A program made the position numbers and the translations under genes. A DNA stretch of 63,690 nt from Chloroflexota bacterium (lineage in GTDB: Bacteria > Chloroflexota > Anaerolineae > UBA4142), in contig VGOB01000001.1 in assembly GCA_016865935.1 (NCBI GenBank), forward strand, positions 1 to 63,690, written 5' to 3'. Of this stretch, positions 11,053 through 26,201 are shown one piece after another (positions within the stretch are counted from its first letter, which is position 1; each line of letters opens with the position of its first letter). The notes beneath the pieces were generated by a model. It was given only the letters and a program-made list of their open reading frames with translations. It did no database searches and was not told the origin of the DNA.

Positions 11053-15516
<4,464 letters not shown>

Positions 15517-19738: not shown

Positions 19739-20320
19739 ATGATCGTTCGAACGTTGCCTGAACCAACTGTCAACGTGGTCATGTCGCCGGTGACAGCCGC
19801 TGAATTGGAACGGATGCCGCAACCCGACGCGCATGTTGAACTCGTGAAAGGAGAAATCGTCACGATGTCACCCTCAGGACACGAACACGGAGAAATCGCT
19901 CTGGCGATTGGATCGTTGTTGCGCGAGTTTGTCCGGAAGCACAAACTCGGCAAAGCCTATGCCGCCGAAACCGGTTTCATTCTTTCGCGCAATCCTGACA
20001 CGGTGCGCGCGCCGGACGCCGCGTTCGTCACGGCGGCGCGCGCGGCGCAACAGACGCGGCGGCAAGGTTTCTTCGATGGCGCGCCGGATCTCGCAGTCGA
20101 AGTCGTGTCGCCTGAAGACACGGTAGACGAGATTGATACCAAGGTGCTCGAGTATCTGCACGCCGGGACGAAGTTGGTGTGGGTCGTTCATCCGCGCACG
20201 CAAACGATCACCATCTATCGCTCGCTCGATCAAGTGCGCGTGTTGACGGCGAACGATACGTTGGACGGAAACGATGTGTTACCTGGGTTCGCGCGCGCGG
20301 CGCGCGAGATTTTTGAATAG
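19739..20320 (+). CDS. Uma2-family (DUF820) endonuclease
   Basis: ATG at 19739 with GGGAAAGAGAGG SD. Sequence ...VELVKGEIVTMSPSGHEHGEIA...RAPDAAFV...PDLAVEVVSPED is typical of Uma2. Confidence 0.8.
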   Translation: MIVRTLPEPTVNVVMSPVTAAELERMPQPDAHVELVKGEIVTMSPSGHEHGEIALAIGSLLREFVRKHKLGKAYAAETGFILSRNPDTVRAPDAAFVTAARAAQQTRRQGFFDGAPDLAVEVVSPEDTVDEIDTKVLEYLHAGTKLVWVVHPRTQTITIYRSLDQVRVLTANDTLDGNDVLPGFARAAREIFE

Positions 20321-20325
20321 AGACA

Positions 20326-20363
20326 AGACCTGGAAGATTTCCAAAACCTTCCAGGTCTTTTTT
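20326..20363 (+). terminator. terminator hairpin between the convergent Uma2 and rqcH genes (family I, copy I3)
   Basis: AGACCTGGAAG-ATTTCCAAAA-CCTTCCAGGTCT followed by TTTTT. Confidence 0.6.
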
Positions 20364-22020
20364 ATTTCAGCGCCACGCTCACCGTTCGTTCCCCGCGCAC
20401 CGTCACCATTCCGGCGCGTCCGCCGCGCGCGCGTTGCACCTGCTTGCGCGGCGCGACGATCACATCTACACGCGTCTCGCCGCGCGCGGCGGAGTAGCGC
20501 GCCGCCAACCCCGCCGCTTCCTCGATCGTGGATTCCGAAATCGCGCGTCCGGCGCGGACGATGACGACGTGCGCGCCCGCGACATTCCGCGCGTGCAACC
20601 ACACATCATCCGATTTCGCGCGCCGAAACGTGACCTCCTCATTTTGCCGCGCGTTCTTGCCAACCAGGATCGCAAATCCTTCGCGCGAGGTGAATTCGCG
20701 CGGCACGCTGGGCGCGGTTTTCACGCGTTGCTTGGCGACGGCGATCAATCCGGCGTCGCGCGCGGCGGCGATCACCGCGTCGATTTCCGCGCGACTCTCC
20801 GCCAGCTCGAGATCGGTCAACGTCTGCTCCGCGTATTCCACTTCGACGTTCGCGGCGGCGAGCAACGCCGGTACGCGCGCCCGCGCGTCTTTTTGCCGGT
20901 GATACTCTTTGAAAAATTTCTGCGCGTTCTCCACAGCGGACAAGTTCGGATTCAACGCAATCTCTAATCCCGAATCTCCGATCTCGATTTTCAAAATTCC
21001 TTGCCCTCGCGCGATCGCGTGCGCGTGCGCCAAGATCGTCTCGCCGCTGGCGCGCAACCGCTCCACCTCTGCCGCGCTGGGCAACGCGTCCGCGAGCGCG
21101 TCGCGTTTGCGCGCCAGCCGATCGCGCGCGTCCGCGATTTGCGCGCGCAGCGGTTCTTTCACCGCCGCGTACGATTCCGGCGCGCCGTAGAATGATTCGA
21201 TGGCGGCGCTGATAGATGGGAAAATTTGGTGATGCGGTGAGTGGGTGATGGGGTACGGCGCGAACGCCGCGGGCTCGTCGTCTTCGAACGCGACGCACGG
21301 TTGCCAGGGCGCGCGCGTCAGCGCGTGGAACGTCGCGACGATGTCCACCGCGCGCCGCGGATCGTTGGGCGCGTCACACTCGCCGGTGACGCGGAACGCG
21401 ATTTCGCGCGCGAGCAGCGGACTGACTCCGGCAATCGAACCGACGAGCGTGTGGCGCAGCAGCGCGCGCGGATTCGCGGCGAGAATGCGCGCCAGATCGG
21501 ACGGATCGAGATTGCCGGGATGAATTTTCGCTTGCGGCGGCGGCGGCGCGTAGACGTGGCGCGGCAACACAACGCGCGCGCGATTGATCGTCGCGTCCAC
21601 GCGCTTGAGCGCGTCGAGCACGACGCCGTCCGCGTCGAGCAAAACGAGGTTCGCGTACTTGCCAATCGTTTCGACGACGAGCGTGGTGATCCCTTCGCGC
21701 GCGTGATCGAATCGGAGTTGGAGGACGCGTTCGTGCTGCAGCGGCGTGATCGCGTCCAGCAACGCGTTCTCGACGCGCTTGCGGAGCAAGAGCAACAACG
21801 GCGACGGCGGCAGTCCGCGCGCGCGCAATTTCTGCGCAACGAGATGGACGCGCGCGTCTTGAGGATGCGCGGTGAGGTAGAGATAGCGCCGCGTGTGCTG
21901 CGCGTAAATTTCCACGCCGAACGCGTGCGCGTCGAGTTGCGCAATATCTTGGACGCGCCCGCGCAAGATTTTTTCGTTCAGTTCAGCCGCAACGGCGGCA
22001 AGTGTGATCGCGTCAAACAT
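20362..22020 (-). CDS. rqcH: NFACT/RqcH-family ribosome quality-control protein (FbpA-like)
   Basis: 552-aa ORF. NFACT-N start MFDAITLAAVAAELNEKILRGRVQDI, a coiled-coil middle, and C-terminal NFACT-R (DVWLHARNVAGAHVVI). Confidence 0.85.
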   Translation of the reverse strand: MFDAITLAAVAAELNEKILRGRVQDIAQLDAHAFGVEIYAQHTRRYLYLTAHPQDARVHLVAQKLRARGLPPSPLLLLLRKRVENALLDAITPLQHERVLQLRFDHAREGITTLVVETIGKYANLVLLDADGVVLDALKRVDATINRARVVLPRHVYAPPPPQAKIHPGNLDPSDLARILAANPRALLRHTLVGSIAGVSPLLAREIAFRVTGECDAPNDPRRAVDIVATFHALTRAPWQPCVAFEDDEPAAFAPYPITHSPHHQIFPSISAAIESFYGAPESYAAVKEPLRAQIADARDRLARKRDALADALPSAAEVERLRASGETILAHAHAIARGQGILKIEIGDSGLEIALNPNLSAVENAQKFFKEYHRQKDARARVPALLAAANVEVEYAEQTLTDLELAESRAEIDAVIAAARDAGLIAVAKQRVKTAPSVPREFTSREGFAILVGKNARQNEEVTFRRAKSDDVWLHARNVAGAHVVIVRAGRAISESTIEEAAGLAARYSAARGETRVDVIVAPRKQVQRARGGRAGMVTVRGERTVSVALK

Positions 22021-22039
22021 TTAGGTTGAGCTTCAAGGA

Positions 22040-22181
22040 GTCCCGCCCCAAGCGTCGCCGGTTCGTCGCTAGTCGCCTGGTCGGTTAGTCGCATCGTCGC
22101 GGCGGGTTGCGCGCGACGAGTTGACCACGTGACCGAGTGACTAGGTGACGATCGGTTACCACAGGGGGCGGGACGGTTTTT
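22040..22181. repeat. about 140-bp imperfect hairpin element closed by GTCCCGCCCC/GGGGCGGGAC
   Basis: 10-bp closing arms at 22040..22049 and 22165..22174. The interior has TAGTCGC/GTGACTA-type half-repeats. GGTTTTT follows on the plus strand. Confidence 0.4.
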
Positions 22182-22315
22182 ATTCGACTGGGCGACCTCG
22201 CGCGCGCCGCAGTCAGGACAGGGTCTGGACTTTCCCCCAGGGCGCCGCGGCTGCCATCCAGCGTAGCAGATGGACAGCATTTCTGGCGGTCCTTACGCCA
22301 CCTGCTGGGATAGTA

Positions 22316-22400
22316 CTCGACGCCACCACCACCCGCACACCGTTGTCGTTGTTGTCGTTGTTGCGGTTGTTGTTGTTGCGAGCGCGCACACCGGCGGTTT
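22316..22400 (-). repeat. DGR template repeat (TR), non-coding and AAC-rich
   Basis: The 85 bp align without gaps to 22703..22787 (offset 387). There are 73 identities and 12 mismatches, and every mismatch is at a coding-strand adenine of this copy. In the target frame it reads AGVRARNNNNRNNDNNDNGVRVVVAS. Confidence 0.8.
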
Positions 22401-22461
22401 AGACGACCCTGCCCTACAACACAGATTGACTTGCGCCAACCCGAATTGCCAAATTGATCTT

Positions 22462-22585
22462 GTCATTGCGAGGAGCGGTTTGTGCACCGAAGCAATCCCC
22501 AACTGCGATTTGGACGCTTCGCGGCTTCGGCATCCTTCGACTCCGCAGCAAAAACGCTGCTCCGCTCAGGATGCCTCGCAATGAC
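22462..22585. mobile_element. MITE-like element, GTCATTGCGAGGAGC family (copy H2), lying between VR and TR
   Basis: Termini are GTCATTGCGAGGAGCGG ... GCCTCGCAATGAC, followed by ACACGC as in copy H1. Confidence 0.55.
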
Positions 22586-22604
22586 ACACGCGAAAAATTT
22601 TTCG

Positions 22605-22631
22605 ACGAGGGGGCGCAATGCGCCCCCTCGT
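22605..22631 (-). terminator. GC-rich 12-bp stem, 3-nt loop hairpin downstream of the NACHT-FGE gene and VR
   Basis: ACGAGGGGGCGC-AAT-GCGCCCCCTCGT. On the minus strand it is followed by CGAAAAATTTTTCG. It lies 72 nt beyond the VR end. Confidence 0.45.
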
Positions 22632-22683
22632 GCTCCCCCAGCGCGTCAGAAAAAACAGAAAACAGAAGATCAGAAAACAGAAA

Positions 22684-25600
22684 TCAACTGCGGGGGAAAA
22701 TCCTCGACGCCACCACCACCCGCACACCGTCGGCGCTGTCGTCGTAGTAGCGGTCGGAGTAGCTGCGAGCGCGCACACCGGCGGATTCTGCTTTAGTCCA
22801 GTACGCGCCGCCGCGAAGGTACGCGGCATCAATGTTCTCGTAAAGAGTACTCGTCCACTCCCACGCATTCCCCGCCAAGTCCCAAATCTCGCCGCCATCC
22901 TCAGTGATGCGTTTTCCATCGGGATACATCGCGACCGGCGTCGTGCCGCCAATTTCGCTTTCTTTCACATTCGCGCGCGCCAATGTCATTGCGAGGAGCG
23001 ACCCTGAGCGGAGCGAAGCGGAGTCGAAGGGTTGCGACGAAGCAATCCCCGAATCGGGAGTTGGAGATTGCTTCGCTCCGCTCGCAATGACAGATGGATC
23101 CCAGGGATAGCGATTGTTTTCCTCACCGCCCGCCGCGCGCACCCACTCGGCTTCGGTGGGCAAACGAACAAAGGATGAAGGATGAAGGATGAAAGATGAA
23201 TTCTCTCCCCCTCTCCCGCTCTCCCCGTCTCCCCCTCTCAATCTCTCCGTCAGCCACGCGCAATACGCGCTCGCTTCGTACCACGTCACGCCGATCACCG
23301 GATAGCCGGCGCGATGGAAACGCGGATTGTCCCAGTACCTCGGTCGGCGTTCCGCGCCGCCCGCGCGTTTCAGCCAGTCCCACGCTTCGTCTTTCAAGTT
23401 TTTCGCGCGTCCGTTTTCATCCACGCCGGATGGGTCGCGCCAGTATTTTTCGTCGGCGTAGCCGCCCGCGTCAATGAATTTTTGGTACTGCGAACAAGTG
23501 ACCGGATATCTGGCGATCCAGAATTCGGGCAGGTCAGAAACCAGGTTTCTCCGAGAAACCTGGTTTCTCTCTGCGGCAGGGATGTGAACGAACGCGTCCA
23601 GATCGTCCGGCAGCCAGCCCAGCGCGTCGAGGATTTCGCCCGCGGCGGCGCGGTCTTTAATCGGCGTTTGGATGGACTGCATCATCGTTCGCAGTTTGGT
23701 CACAATCTCGTCGCGCAGCGGCGCGGCAAGCCGGTCGCTCATATCCACCGCCGCTTTGCCCGCCATCAAAAGATGTCCGCGTTGGAGCATTTCGTCCATC
23801 AACAACTTGCGGCGCGGGTCGCCCAGTTCCTTCAACGCCAGCGCGAGCAAAATCGTCTCTTCCCACCACGCCTCGCCGATGTGCGCCAACACTTTTTGCG
23901 CGAGCGCGGCATCGAGTTCTTTGACGAGTTCGGTCGCGGCGAGGTACTCGCGAAAGTTCGAGTGCGAAAAGTTGTAGAGATTCGGCGCGCCTTCGACGAA
24001 CAAGCCGCTGCGTTGGTGCGCGATGACGAGAAAACCGCGCGCCCACTGGTCCGGCACATTCTTTTCGCCCTCGCGCTCGCGGAAAAAAGTTCCCAGTTGC
24101 GCCAGCGCATCTTGTTCCGTCGTCTCGGCGCGTCCTTGCTGCTGCATCCAGTACGCCAGATGCGCGAGCGCGCGGTGTTTCGCTTCGACGGCTTCGCCGA
24201 CGTCGCGAAACGCGCGCCCGGTGCCGTCGTCGGTCGCCAGTTGAAACGCTTCCGCCACGTCGTAGCGCGACGTGTCCCAAAAGCCGAGCAAGAGGTCAAC
24301 GATTTCTTTGAAAATATCGACGCGGCGTTCCGGCAGCGTCGCGCCGCGATATTTCGAGACGAGGACGATCGTCGTGCAAAAAAGCGGATTGCGCGAGAGT
24401 TCGTCCACCTTTTCCTTTTGCGGAATTTCTGCGAGCAAGGTCGCCGCGTCGTGACTGGCGCGCGCGGCGTCCCGTTCGAGCGCGCGGCACAATTTGCGAA
24501 TCAATTCCGCGCGTCCTTCCGGCAGCAAGGGCTGGACCGTGCAAACGATGGGGCGCGGCAGGTACTCCGCCACTTCGTCGTATCCTTTGGGACGTGACGA
24601 AAGGACAAAACGATTTTTACGGGGGCGATAGCGATCGATGAATTGTGTGACGTGCTGCGCGACACACGCGCGCAGTTCCGGATCGGACACTTCGTCGAGC
24701 GCGTCGAGCAGGACGAGGCACTTGCCATTCTCCAGACGTTGGCGAAAGAAATCCGGCGTGAGCGCGAGCGCGTTCTTGGTGAAATGATCTTGAATGTACG
24801 TCAACAACGACATCGGCGCGGGCGCGGGAAATTCTTTGCGATGATTCTTGAGAAACTCGCCAAAGTTGCGGAGCGGGACGAGGATCGGCAAAAGCGGATC
24901 GCCTTGCCAATCCAATTTTTCTTTCGCGTCGCCGTTCGCAAACGCGAGCGCAAGATGGCGCAAGAGTGTCGTCTTGCCGGAACCCGGCGCGCCTTTGAGC
25001 AAGACGTAATCGTACCGCGGCAAAATGTCGTTGATCGTTTGCGGCTTGAAACCTTCCAGGTCTCCAAGACCTGGAAGGTTTTTGTCAACGCGCCGCCGCG
25101 CTTTTTCTTCCGCTTCGGGATCGTGGACTTGAAGCGGGACAAAGACGGCTTCCAGTTCGGCTTCGGTCGTCGCTTCGCGACTGCGCGGGCGCACAAAGAG
25201 GAACGAAAGGTAGGTGTGTTTTTCGCGGACGTGCGCGAGGTAATCGTTCAACGCCTGCGCGTGATCGCCCGTCGTCGCAATGCCTTGCGCGGCGGCAAGC
25301 GCGGCAAGCCAGGTGTTCGTCGCGTCCTGCTTTTTTGCCGCGCGCAATTCGAGCGCGAATTTCATCAGCGGCTCGTACGCCTTGATCTGCGCGAAACGCA
25401 AGCGAAATTCCCAGAGGAACGCGGCGAGCGTGGGACGCGCTTGCTCGTTCAAACCAAAGGCGCGCAAGAGATCGTCCGAAATGCGCGTGGGGCTGGGATC
25501 GTCCAGCGTGAGGAGCGCGGCAAGCGTCTGCTTTTGCAAGTTCCTGTCGGTCGCCAGTTTGGCAACGCGCGTGAGGATAGCGTCGGCTTGCGCGTTGGTC

Positions 25601-25815
25601 ACGCCCGGCGATTTGCGGAACGCGTCTTCGGTCGCCTCCAGCGCGCGCCGCAAATCGTTCTCGTGTTGCTTGGCTTGATAGCCGCGCAAAAAATTCGCGG
25701 CGAATTGTTCGGCAAGAGTCCTGGTCGCTGTTTTGGCGCCTTCTTCAGCCATCACTCTGCCAACGACTAGCGCTGCTGATGCAAGCGCCGACGCTGCAGG
25801 AATCCAATCTAACAT
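22684..25815 (-). CDS. STAND NTPase: N-terminal helical region, NACHT domain, helical repeats, C-terminal FGE-sulfatase/C-type-lectin domain (DGR target)
   Basis: 1043 aa from the ATG at 25815 (GGAGG SD). The ORF track start at 25902 runs through a hairpin repeat. Walker A LLKGAPGSGKTTLLRHLA. FGE motifs YPVIGVTWYEASAYCAWL, RLPTEAEW, GNAWEWTS and LRGGAYW. The last 28 codons are the VR. Confidence 0.85.
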   Translation of the reverse strand: MLDWIPAASALASAALVVGRVMAEEGAKTATRTLAEQFAANFLRGYQAKQHENDLRRALEATEDAFRKSPGVTNAQADAILTRVAKLATDRNLQKQTLAALLTLDDPSPTRISDDLLRAFGLNEQARPTLAAFLWEFRLRFAQIKAYEPLMKFALELRAAKKQDATNTWLAALAAAQGIATTGDHAQALNDYLAHVREKHTYLSFLFVRPRSREATTEAELEAVFVPLQVHDPEAEEKARRRVDKNLPGLGDLEGFKPQTINDILPRYDYVLLKGAPGSGKTTLLRHLALAFANGDAKEKLDWQGDPLLPILVPLRNFGEFLKNHRKEFPAPAPMSLLTYIQDHFTKNALALTPDFFRQRLENGKCLVLLDALDEVSDPELRACVAQHVTQFIDRYRPRKNRFVLSSRPKGYDEVAEYLPRPIVCTVQPLLPEGRAELIRKLCRALERDAARASHDAATLLAEIPQKEKVDELSRNPLFCTTIVLVSKYRGATLPERRVDIFKEIVDLLLGFWDTSRYDVAEAFQLATDDGTGRAFRDVGEAVEAKHRALAHLAYWMQQQGRAETTEQDALAQLGTFFREREGEKNVPDQWARGFLVIAHQRSGLFVEGAPNLYNFSHSNFREYLAATELVKELDAALAQKVLAHIGEAWWEETILLALALKELGDPRRKLLMDEMLQRGHLLMAGKAAVDMSDRLAAPLRDEIVTKLRTMMQSIQTPIKDRAAAGEILDALGWLPDDLDAFVHIPAAERNQVSRRNLVSDLPEFWIARYPVTCSQYQKFIDAGGYADEKYWRDPSGVDENGRAKNLKDEAWDWLKRAGGAERRPRYWDNPRFHRAGYPVIGVTWYEASAYCAWLTERLRGGDGESGRGGENSSFILHPSSFVRLPTEAEWVRAAGGEENNRYPWDPSVIASGAKQSPTPDSGIASSQPFDSASLRSGSLLAMTLARANVKESEIGGTTPVAMYPDGKRITEDGGEIWDLAGNAWEWTSTLYENIDAAYLRGGAYWTKAESAGVRARSYSDRYYDDSADGVRVVVASRIFPRS
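22703..22787 (-). repeat. DGR variable repeat (VR) at the 3' end of the NACHT-FGE gene
   Basis: Matches the TR except at 12 TR-adenine positions. It encodes SAGVRARSYSDRYYDDSADGVRVVVAS. The 28-bp GC-rich 3' block (22703..22730) is identical to the TR and is IMH-like. Confidence 0.8.
22985..23091. mobile_element. MITE-like element (copy H3) inserted in frame in the FGE domain
   Basis: GTCATTGCGAGGAGCGACC ... CGCTCGCAATGAC. It translates as ...IASGAKQSPTPDSGIASSQPFDSASLRSGSLLAMT... between the FGE motifs YPWDP and GGTTPVAMYPDG. Confidence 0.6.
23171..23249. repeat. GGATGAA-heptamer tract plus GGGAGAG-type tract inside the FGE domain (copies C1 and D1)
   Basis: AAGGATGAAGGATGAAGGATGAAAGATGAA then CTCTCCCCCTCTCCCGCTCTCCCCGTCTCCCCCTCTC. 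They translate as GGDGESGRGGENSSFILHPSSF between AWLTERL and RLPTEAEW. Confidence 0.6.
25049..25083. repeat. family I hairpin (copy I4) in frame inside the NACHT protein
   Basis: AAACCTTCCAGGTC-TCCAA-GACCTGGAAGGTTT. It encodes ...NLPGLGDLEGFKP... just upstream of the Walker A region. Confidence 0.6.
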
Positions 25816-25828
25816 CGCGCCTCCAAAG

Positions 25829-25861
25829 AGACCTTCCAGGTTTCCAAAACCTGGAAGGTCT
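25829..25861. repeat. family I hairpin (copy I5) between the Phd-like gene and the NACHT gene start
   Basis: AGACCTTCCAGGT-TTCCAAA-ACCTGGAAGGTCT. Confidence 0.55.
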
Positions 25862-25868
25862 GTGAGTT

Positions 25869-26111
25869 TCACGACAACGCGTCGGTATCTTTCGCTTTCC
25901 AACTCCCCGCCGCCGCGAGAAATGCATTACGGTCGGCTGTTCTATTCTTGCGATGATGTGGTAGGCGCGCGCGGAATGGCGTAAGTAGAACTAACACCTT
26001 GCCGCGCCTTTCCAATGCGACCGGTCTGCGCTCGCGCGTGACGCGTTTCAAGACGCGGGTTGGATTTTCAACCAGTTCGTCCACCGGAATCCGCGCAATG
26101 GCTCGATTCAT
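25869..26111 (-). CDS. small Phd/YefM-like antitoxin-fold protein
   Basis: 80-aa ORF with GGAGGAG SD. The N-terminus MNRAIARIPVDELVENPTRVLKRVTRERRPVALERRGKVLVLL resembles Phd/YefM antitoxins. No cognate toxin ORF is seen. Confidence 0.5.
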   Translation of the reverse strand: MNRAIARIPVDELVENPTRVLKRVTRERRPVALERRGKVLVLLTPFRARLPHHRKNRTADRNAFLAAAGSWKAKDTDALS

Positions 26112-26166
26112 CTTATTTTCTCCTCCGCCACATTATACCATGTTTCGCGTTTCACGCATCACGCCT

Positions 26167-26201
26167 TTGGCTCATTGGCTCATTGGTCAATTGGCTCATT
26201 G
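26167..26201. repeat. direct GGCTCATT octamer tract (copy F2, half element)
   Basis: TTGGCTCATTGGCTCATTGGTCAATTGGCTCATTG overlaps the stop codon of the permease gene. Confidence 0.5.

Follow-up and report, generated by a model that had tools for sequence, protein, structure and literature searches.

In-frame repeats have been described within genes of several bacteria. The Rickettsia palindromic elements (RPEs) are palindromic repeats of about 100-150 nt that reside in frame in Rickettsia genes (Ogata et al. 2000, 2002, as described in PMC10969869), and the QMITEs of Coxiella burnetii, which are found within open reading frames (ORFs), are small inverted-repeat elements that give peptide to their host ORFs, according to PMC5896051 and PMC10969869. 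Intragenic repetitive extragenic palindromic sequences (REPs) with a GTAG or CGTC tag have been reported in ORFs of several species, many of them replication or repair genes, where they encode 20-30 residues that were argued to form linkers or loops (Di Nocera, De Gregorio, Rocco 2013, PMC3733652). One class of these, the CGTC-tagged REPs, often carries the tag TGTC, has stems of 8-9 bp that start with AT, and has no known transposase; the Chloroflexi are listed for GTAG repeats only (PMC3733652). Here, we analyse a 63,690-nt stretch of DNA, hereafter the window, from a Chloroflexota bacterium (assembly GCA_016865935.1, contig VGOB01000001.1, positions 1 to 63,690), in which a STAND gene with NACHT and FGE-sulfatase domains, itself the target of a diversity-generating retroelement (DGR), contains five in-frame repeat pieces. 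We consider it probable, at roughly 80%, that these five segments belong to non-coding, genome-filling repeat families that are now resident at permissive positions of a working gene.

The NACHT-FGE gene is a single open frame of 1043 codons on the minus strand (22684-25815) and is enclosed in an ORF without stop that spans 22684..25902 on the same strand. Gene callers and the N-termini of orthologs agree on the ATG at 25815 as the start. The product (P0002, 1043 aa) is identical on 5 contigs, and Pfam places the NACHT and the FGE-sulfatase domains in the same frame, the latter at the C-terminal end; Walker A, Walker B and the conserved motifs of the FGE domain are all retained. An inverted-repeat scan plus direct reading located the repeat pieces, which comprise two palindromes (palA and palB), two tandem arrays and a 109-nt element that resembles both a REP doublet forming a hairpin (REPIN) and a MITE (miniature inverted-repeat transposable element). 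The gene and its pieces are as follows:

22684..25815, minus strand: NACHT-FGE STAND gene, target of the DGR and host of the repeats (open frame, Pfam, syntenic orthologs)
24970..24993, minus strand: Walker A motif (GAPGSGKT), a landmark (direct reading)
25049..25081, no strand assigned: palA, a perfect 15-3-15 palindrome, in frame, encoding KNLPGLGDLEGF, located in the linker that precedes the NACHT P-loop
23536..23568, no strand assigned: palB, a perfect 16-1-16 palindrome, in frame, encoding NQVSRRNLVS, located where the FGE domain begins on its N-terminal side
23203..23235, minus strand: purine-rich 8-mer array, GGGGAGAS x4, in frame (direct reading)
23173..23200, minus strand: heptamer array, TTCATCY x4 (GGATGAA on the plus strand), in frame, encoding FILHPSS (direct reading)
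22984..23092, no strand assigned: 109-nt inverted-repeat element (REPIN/MITE-like) with ends TGTCATTGCGAG / CTCGCAATGACA, in frame, encoding VIASGAKQSP...SLLAMT

About 20 codons separate palA from Walker A. The heptamer array, which has 1 mismatch in 28 nt, directly follows the 8-mer array, both being located between the FGE motifs AWLTERL and RLPTEAEW, and the 109-nt element, with its 12-nt ends TGTCATTGCGAG, is located between YPWDP and the RANV/GGTTPVAMYPDG block. A preliminary description of this DNA had reported a palindrome before Walker A, GGATGAA and GGGAGAG tracts between the two FGE motifs, and a 107-bp MITE after YPWDP, all within the open NACHT-FGE frame. Reading of the ORF and the Pfam matches bear out these positions: the palindrome is a perfect 15+3+15 and the tracts together cover 23173-23235, whereas the MITE is in the place proposed but has an extent of 109 nt. 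palB was absent from that description.

All five pieces consist of DNA that is repeated elsewhere in the genome. The repeat DNA of the window matches dispersed families at 88-100% identity, and its motifs are far more frequent in the window than expected by chance (12 versus 0.01, 9 versus 0.58 and 4 versus 0 in shuffles). The family of the 109-nt element has about 275 copies in the 4.8-Mb genome, most of them of 77-92 nt (range 70-380 nt, mode 80), and the closest other copies found by BLAST in the genome are 88-94% identical. The palA family consists of 51-68 perfect hairpins of the form AGACCT-NNN-AGGTTT, whose core is variable and always compensated, and is usually found directly after stop codons. 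There are ten perfect genome copies of palB and 139 occurrences of GGATGAA x3, and the heptamer arrays of the genome are built from 73 distinct units. The predicted RNA folds are strong for palA (-24.5 kcal/mol, z -5.3 versus shuffles), palB (-22.6 kcal/mol, z -4.4) and the 109-nt element (-53.1 kcal/mol, z -6.1). No significant fold was found for the 8-mer plus heptamer tract of the window (z +0.96 versus shuffles), and a hairpin formed by the two tandem arrays of the window was rejected on this value; the arrays of the related genome G003 do have complementary arms. An Rfam scan of 20000-26200 (E up to 1) gave a chance miRNA match only and assigned no element to a described RNA family.

Syntenic orthologs of the gene are found at 49-82% identity, and the six whose DNA was compared have, as in the window, branched-chain permease genes upstream and an NFACT gene downstream. 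The repeat sites were read from a codon-level alignment of these six orthologs and of copies from three same-genus or same-family genomes, nine in total (WIN is the window's gene, L and G labels are the ortholog loci and related genomes compared, and G000 is this genome). At the site of the 109-nt element, a conserved loop (…PGESTGKLP.EK.KEIV…) without any element is present in same-genus G003, L007, L008, L010 and L011. The window has lost this 17-codon (51-nt) loop, and the element there directly adjoins the conserved LARANV block, a net gain of 60 nt (20 residues) over the orthologs that makes it the sole piece adding net length of this size. L009 contains an independent copy of the same family at a different position in the same loop, and G011 has a different palindrome there (CCCTCCCC…GGGGAGGG) with the total length unchanged and likewise lacks the 109-nt element. 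At the palB site, the ancestral sequence GETTF..KRVRV is found in L007, L009, L010 and G011; in an ortholog model it forms two beta-strands with a predicted local distance difference test score (pLDDT) >92, so that palB has replaced a beta-hairpin in the window, where it adds a net 3 residues and is modelled as coil (pLDDT ~70). G003 has at this site another kind of hairpin element, ~120 nt long and also in frame, and the palB-encoded peptide is present at the same position in P0006, P0016 and P0019, in the case of P0006 at the protein level only.

The tandem-repeat site behaves differently: a left array of 7-8-mers and a right array of heptamers are present in 9/9 orthologs read there. The unit of the right array is TTCATCC in the window, L010 and G003 and CTCCAAY in the others, a distribution that conflicts with the gene tree, and at the 8-mer site the orthologs have either related GGAGACAN arrays or unrelated GCAGATT arrays. 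Since all nine orthologs have tandem repeats of differing units, the position of these repeats is ancestral and only their sequence turns over. At the palA site, perfect or near-perfect palindromes of differing sequence are present in the window, G003, L007, L008, L012/G004 and G011, and no hairpin is found in L009, L010 and L011. When the palA stems are aligned, 8/15 pairs are invariant, 6/15 are changed on both sides and 0 on one side only; 97.8% of the cells pair and there are no G-U intermediates. With a dS of about 0.85 among the genes, simple descent cannot keep such perfect palindromes, and the lack of G-U intermediates points to DNA-level copying, of one arm or from family members, and not to selection on an RNA fold. 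The palA loop is inverted between the window (TGG) and same-genus G003 (CCA, L186:1719-1751), replacing Gly by Gln, which, going by the letters, looks like a flip of the entire palindrome.

Hence, the same four sites hold different repeats across the orthologs, and the frame is always kept. The preliminary description had regarded all of its elements as insertions, each a multiple of three in length and each adding 10-35 residues in predicted loops. The 109-nt element does add residues in that range, but its own length is not a multiple of three and its net gain goes together with the loss of the 51-nt loop, whereas palA, palB and the tandem tract add 0 to 3 residues net and fill the space of ortholog sequence of similar length. 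As regards the predicted loops, the model of the last 319 residues of the protein (mean pLDDT 84) matches FGE/EgtB-type structures and shows the inserts as low-confidence coil parts (pLDDT ~70, 59 and 46-57) of an otherwise confident fold, but at the palB site it was beta-strands that were replaced. The comparison with orthologs proposed in that description revealed empty sites for the 109-nt element, palB and palA, and also for an element in mfd (see below). The view that the palindromes are domain-swap junctions was considered and rejected; similarity to the DUF4062-type proteins P0004 and P0006 begins about 25 residues upstream of palB.

The gene that contains these repeats is under purifying selection. 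When the repeat sites are excluded, dN/dS against each of the six syntenic orthologs is 0.18-0.26 over 834 aligned codons. Two of the relatives have an altered frame. The G003 ortholog (L186, G003:C43:54782-59038) contains an internal TAG, and its protein match is broken by a gap of about 1.2 kb that falls between residues 156 and 170; a larger insertion may be responsible for the interruption. In L012:3001-5883 (P0018), the frame is lost directly after YPWDE, at the loop that holds the 109-nt element in the window; either the scar of a deletion or an error in sequencing could account for this.

Residence of these repeats in genes extends over the whole genome. In a rough, conservative scoring, copies were counted as in frame in coding-like ORFs when a spanning ORF of at least 100 codons had 60-codon flanks that both scored as coding, a test that 56% of random positions pass; this was the case for 50/249 copies of the 109-nt family, 10/68 palA-like hairpins, 1/10 palB copies and 129/372 heptamer arrays of 3-14 units tested for their ORF context. 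These counts are lower bounds, as the window's own 109-nt copy fails the test owing to the tandem repeats in its flank. In all, there are at least 167 host ORFs in the genome. Among the 109-nt-family copies that lie in ORFs, 38/50 have a length of 2 mod 3, and most read VIAS..AKQSP..EIAS..LLAMT. Pfam matches were obtained for 8 of ten scanned hosts, and in at least five of the ten the domains flank the insert (MutS2, Mfd, two Type ISP enzymes and a TIR-NB-ARC-TPR protein); other Pfam-matched hosts are a MacB-type permease and a histidine kinase. Four in-frame copies of the 109-nt family in such hosts are located as follows:

C24:7303-7406, strand not stated: in-frame copy in mfd (Pfam host)
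C3:34363-34448, strand not stated: in-frame copy in mutS2 (Pfam host)
C93:9730-9821 and 12409-12488, strand not stated: two in-frame copies in one Type ISP restriction enzyme (Pfam host)

The copy in mfd is a clean in-frame insertion shared by this genome and one other of the genus; seven relatives, two of the same genus among them, lack it. One of the two Type ISP copies is located inside the C-terminal specificity domain. In-ORF heptamer arrays have 3-5 units and intergenic arrays have up to 14. Although the preliminary description singled out the NACHT-FGE gene as a notable host, the phenomenon is genome-wide and the gene is not special in kind. Two other arrangements of hairpins were seen in the genome. 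At C206:6700-7180, a unit made up of the last ~80 nt of a gene and the palA-type hairpin that follows its stop codon recurs in four tandem copies at a period of 116-118 nt, and other families of perfect hairpins have GTAG-type starts (e.g. GTAGGGGCG...), from which the genome may also hold classical GTAG REPs.

The remaining features of the locus concern the DGR and the surroundings of the gene:

22694..22787, minus strand: DGR variable region (VR), with mismatches to the template repeat (TR) at TR adenines only
22307..22400, minus strand: DGR TR, present in one copy in the genome, with no adjoining reverse transcriptase (RT)
22461..22586, no strand assigned: further copy of the 109-nt inverted-repeat family, between the VR and the TR (family motif)
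25829..25861, no strand assigned: second palA-family palindrome, in the 5' leader outside the gene, 14 nt upstream of the start codon

The VR comprises the last ~90 nt of the NACHT-FGE gene, and the TR copy is located 387 nt downstream. All mismatches between the two coincide with TR adenines within AAC codons, and there is no other decay over 82 nt, which supports the earlier proposal that the repeats reside in a DGR-diversified protein. Neither an RT nor Avd is encoded in the interval that separates the target from the NFACT gene (22020-22690), the neighbour being the NFACT gene itself; RT candidates are located elsewhere in the genome, on contigs C182, C253 and C288, and the family-level ortholog L012 has kept a 352-aa RT in the gap between target and NFACT genes (L012:6076-7134). 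The leader palindrome ends 5 nt before the GGAGG ribosome-binding site and could have an effect on translation initiation or on the end of the upstream transcript.

The 109-nt family is not restricted to this lineage. It is present in 30/31 related genomes, and copies with exact ends are found in Bacteroidota, Planctomycetota, Patescibacteria, Cyanobacteria, several proteobacterial classes and others. In this genome, 56% of the copies are 2 mod 3 in length and 75% are open in one frame, whereas the cross-phylum copies are divided 40/46/46 over the three length classes and about 40% of them have open frames. The idea that translatability characterises the entire family is therefore rejected; copies in this genome alone are biased towards a translatable form, perhaps through a founder effect. 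The flanks of the copies are constant, with a T before and an A after. The genome holds three small GIY-YIG genes, one of which lies between one copy of the element and four tandem 80-nt copies; this element-flanked gene (C194:3880-4635, L143/L157) encodes about 95 aa and matches Pfam PF01541. The homologous GIY-YIG genes of relatives have the end motif of the element within 400 nt in 15/20 cases, on both sides in 11, at a chance expectation of about 0.25 per kb. Among 120 random cross-phylum loci, those of Nostoc (L097) and Woesebacteria (L057) have a GIY-YIG gene of 55-69% identity adjoining the element. The small GIY-YIG nuclease is on this association the best candidate for a mover of the family. 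No insertion sequence with the same ends and a transposase was seen, although no systematic transposase search was made; the GIY-YIG nuclease gene was the only one found to be framed by these ends. In the full text of the literature, the end and inner motifs of the element matched unrelated primers only, and a search for work linking GIY-YIG to REP, RAYT (REP-associated tyrosine transposase) or REPIN returned no mention of GIY-YIG among the matches listed.

Taken together, the observations are consistent with the following view. A REPIN/MITE-like hairpin element, two short perfect palindrome families and tandem heptamer/octamer arrays would have settled in the gene, in which copies without a stop that keep the frame would persist, the ribosome reading extra or substitute peptide, and copies that break the gene would be lost. 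The four positions, two of which are peripheral FGE loops and the other two the linker ahead of the P-loop and the N-terminal border of the FGE domain, would act as long-lived landing pads, because in orthologs the corresponding codons are occupied by repeats from either the same or unrelated families. Each site would have its sequence renewed by re-insertion, conversion from other copies or slippage, with the length of the loop remaining roughly constant. The peptides are presumably made and tolerated, and the way in which the DNA moves is likewise proposed from these comparisons.

It should be noted that several points weigh against this view. The dN/dS value is a pairwise average and is compatible with the gene having lost its function very recently in this lineage. 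palB took the place of a structured beta-hairpin, and according to the models the domain could be impaired. The DGR locus has no RT and may no longer be active. The in-ORF counts come from a home-made codon-usage gene caller, with ten hosts checked against Pfam. That the inserts are translated is deduced from the frame being open and from the selection that acts on the remainder of the gene, and the recurrent occupancy of the sites could reflect old inheritance followed by conversion instead of repeated new insertion. Finally, the link to GIY-YIG is one of association, and no target-site duplication was found, either in the genome-wide flanks or when filled and empty mfd sites were compared.

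Some of these points are shared with other explanations. If the gene were a decaying pseudogene, repeat invasion would go unresisted, and the presence of five repeats in a single gene, a locus that lacks an RT and has a repeat copy between VR and TR, the substitution of structured strands by palB, and the damaged look of the relatives G003 (TAG and 1.2-kb match gap) and L012 (frameshift after YPWDE) would all be in keeping with this. A stop-free frame of 1043 codons, the preservation of Walker A and B and of the conserved FGE motifs, a dN/dS of about 0.2, the restriction of VR/TR mismatches to adenines, and the residence of the same elements in the housekeeping genes mfd and mutS2 argue otherwise, and we regard decay, which the preliminary description had named as a possible refutation of its view, as very unlikely. 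No more credible is that the segments are ancestral protein sequence with only a secondary likeness to genomic repeats. It would explain why the orthologs have stretches of similar length at all four sites and why even the most distant of them has tandem arrays, but it conflicts with the identity of the DNA to dispersed families, with the unrelated and mutually conserved loop at the 109-nt site in G003, L007, L008, L010 and L011, with the conserved beta-hairpin at the palB site in L007, L009, L010 and G011, and with the inability of perfect palindromes to outlast the divergence of these genes by descent alone; for the 109-nt element and palB, this explanation is refuted by the empty orthologous sites. 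An assembly artefact, in which repeats were collapsed or mis-joined, might be suspected in a repeat-rich metagenomic draft of 322 contigs, but it is hardly conceivable given that the identical 1043-aa protein was recovered on 5 contigs, that the flanks are collinear with the orthologs on both sides of every insert, and that comparable in-frame elements are present in independent assemblies of relatives.

Two further explanations attribute a role to the repeats themselves. The palindromes might be kept for the hairpin they form, for instance as a pause of transcription or translation at domain borders, in RNA processing or as a recombination hot spot. We consider this unlikely, even though palA and palB are located at domain borders, fold strongly and, in the case of palA, have stayed near-perfect in six orthologs through pairs that are invariant or doubly changed: no hairpin is present at the palA site in L009, L010 and L011 or at the palB site in L007, L009, L010 and G011, most members of the same families follow stop codons, and the lack of G-U intermediates speaks for copying at the DNA level rather than for selection on the RNA fold. 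Alternatively, the heptamer tract might serve as a phase-variation switch in which the change of a single 7-nt unit shifts the frame and turns off the VR-bearing part of the FGE domain. The unit within the ORF is not a multiple of three, as in phase-variable loci, and an array this close to perfection at an old site indicates that slippage or conversion is ongoing; however, the array has only four units, the shortness of in-ORF arrays relative to intergenic ones looks like selection against long unstable tracts, and the frame is kept across the site in every ortholog that was read through. A switch of this kind is thus decidedly unlikely. A more far-reaching proposal extends the preferred reading, that of repeat families resident at permissive positions, rather than replacing it: the 109-nt family would be a pan-bacterial repeat moved by a GIY-YIG nuclease, which in this Chloroflexi lineage would have shifted to a translatable form and come to colonise genes on a large scale and which, together with the palindromes and the heptamer arrays, would again and again rewrite the same peripheral loops of a DGR-diversified sensor. 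This proposal is possible but doubtful. If true, there would be a nuclease-repeat partnership parallel to that of REPINs and RAYTs, supplying the enzyme missing for TGTC/CGTC-tagged repeats, and a second, repeat-driven layer of variation on an already hypervariable receptor.

Compared with described systems, the locus has partial counterparts for each of its repeat classes. The 109-nt element begins with TGTC-ATTGCGAG, an 8-nt arm with an AT start, and sits in mfd and mutS2, as would a CGTC-tagged REP; however, its partner arm is 55-100 nt away at the far end and not across a loop of 4-5 nt followed by a 3-nt tail, and the element flanks GIY-YIG nuclease genes. Its inner arms pair only partly, and its sequence suggests two degenerate units in inverted orientation. 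With REPINs and RAYTs (PMC3116915, PMC3337134), it shares the hundreds of short hairpin doublets, the few small enzyme genes flanked by repeats and the absence of target-site duplication, but the flanked gene is a ~95-aa GIY-YIG gene instead of an IS200/IS605-type tyrosine transposase, and the family spans many phyla. The 109-nt element and its GIY-YIG gene would work like a REPIN-RAYT pair without being a member of that group. As a MITE, the element is small and has 12-nt perfect terminal inverted repeats but lacks a target-site duplication. Likewise, the gene as a DGR target has the adenine-only differences between VR and TR and no adjoining cognate RT. For the tandem arrays, the counterparts are the short tandemly repeated repetitive (STRR) heptamers of cyanobacteria. 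The abundance of heptamers in bacteria is mentioned in PMC4692102. The arrays described here resemble STRRs in that many tandem heptamer families are scattered over the genome, and differ from them in that the host is of the Chloroflexi type and about a third of the arrays are in frame in coding-like ORFs.

The closest parallel is with the RPEs, and the likeness drawn in the preliminary description is apt: dispersed, multi-copy palindromic families are read in frame in unrelated functional genes, among them an intact gene under selection, where they add peptide, and orthologs without the element exist. It should be noted that the locus is set alongside RPEs by function and that a sequence relation is not expected; the host belongs to another phylum and is a free-living-type organism with a 4.8-Mb genome. 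Furthermore, a single gene here holds several unrelated repeat classes, different families make use of the same sites in orthologs, and most events replace sequence instead of adding it. The QMITEs of Coxiella are another element family in another host.

In summary, the repeats of the NACHT-FGE gene function like RPEs or intragenic REPs and, as a further example from another phylum, belong to a known kind. In-frame colonisation of genes is best known from Rickettsia, and it is found here in the genome of a free-living-type organism whose host ORFs include mfd, mutS2 and restriction enzymes. The pairing with GIY-YIG genes provides a testable candidate enzyme for a class of repeats without a known one (PMC3733652), and, for annotation, database peptides such as VIAS..AKQSP..LLAMT are repeat-derived, the same element being present in many phyla. 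What goes beyond the descriptions of RPEs and intragenic REPs consulted here is that different families make repeated use of the same four sites from ortholog to ortholog and that host sequence is replaced rather than extended; this re-use, with the length of the loop kept, constitutes a natural map of rewritable positions in a STAND/FGE sensor.

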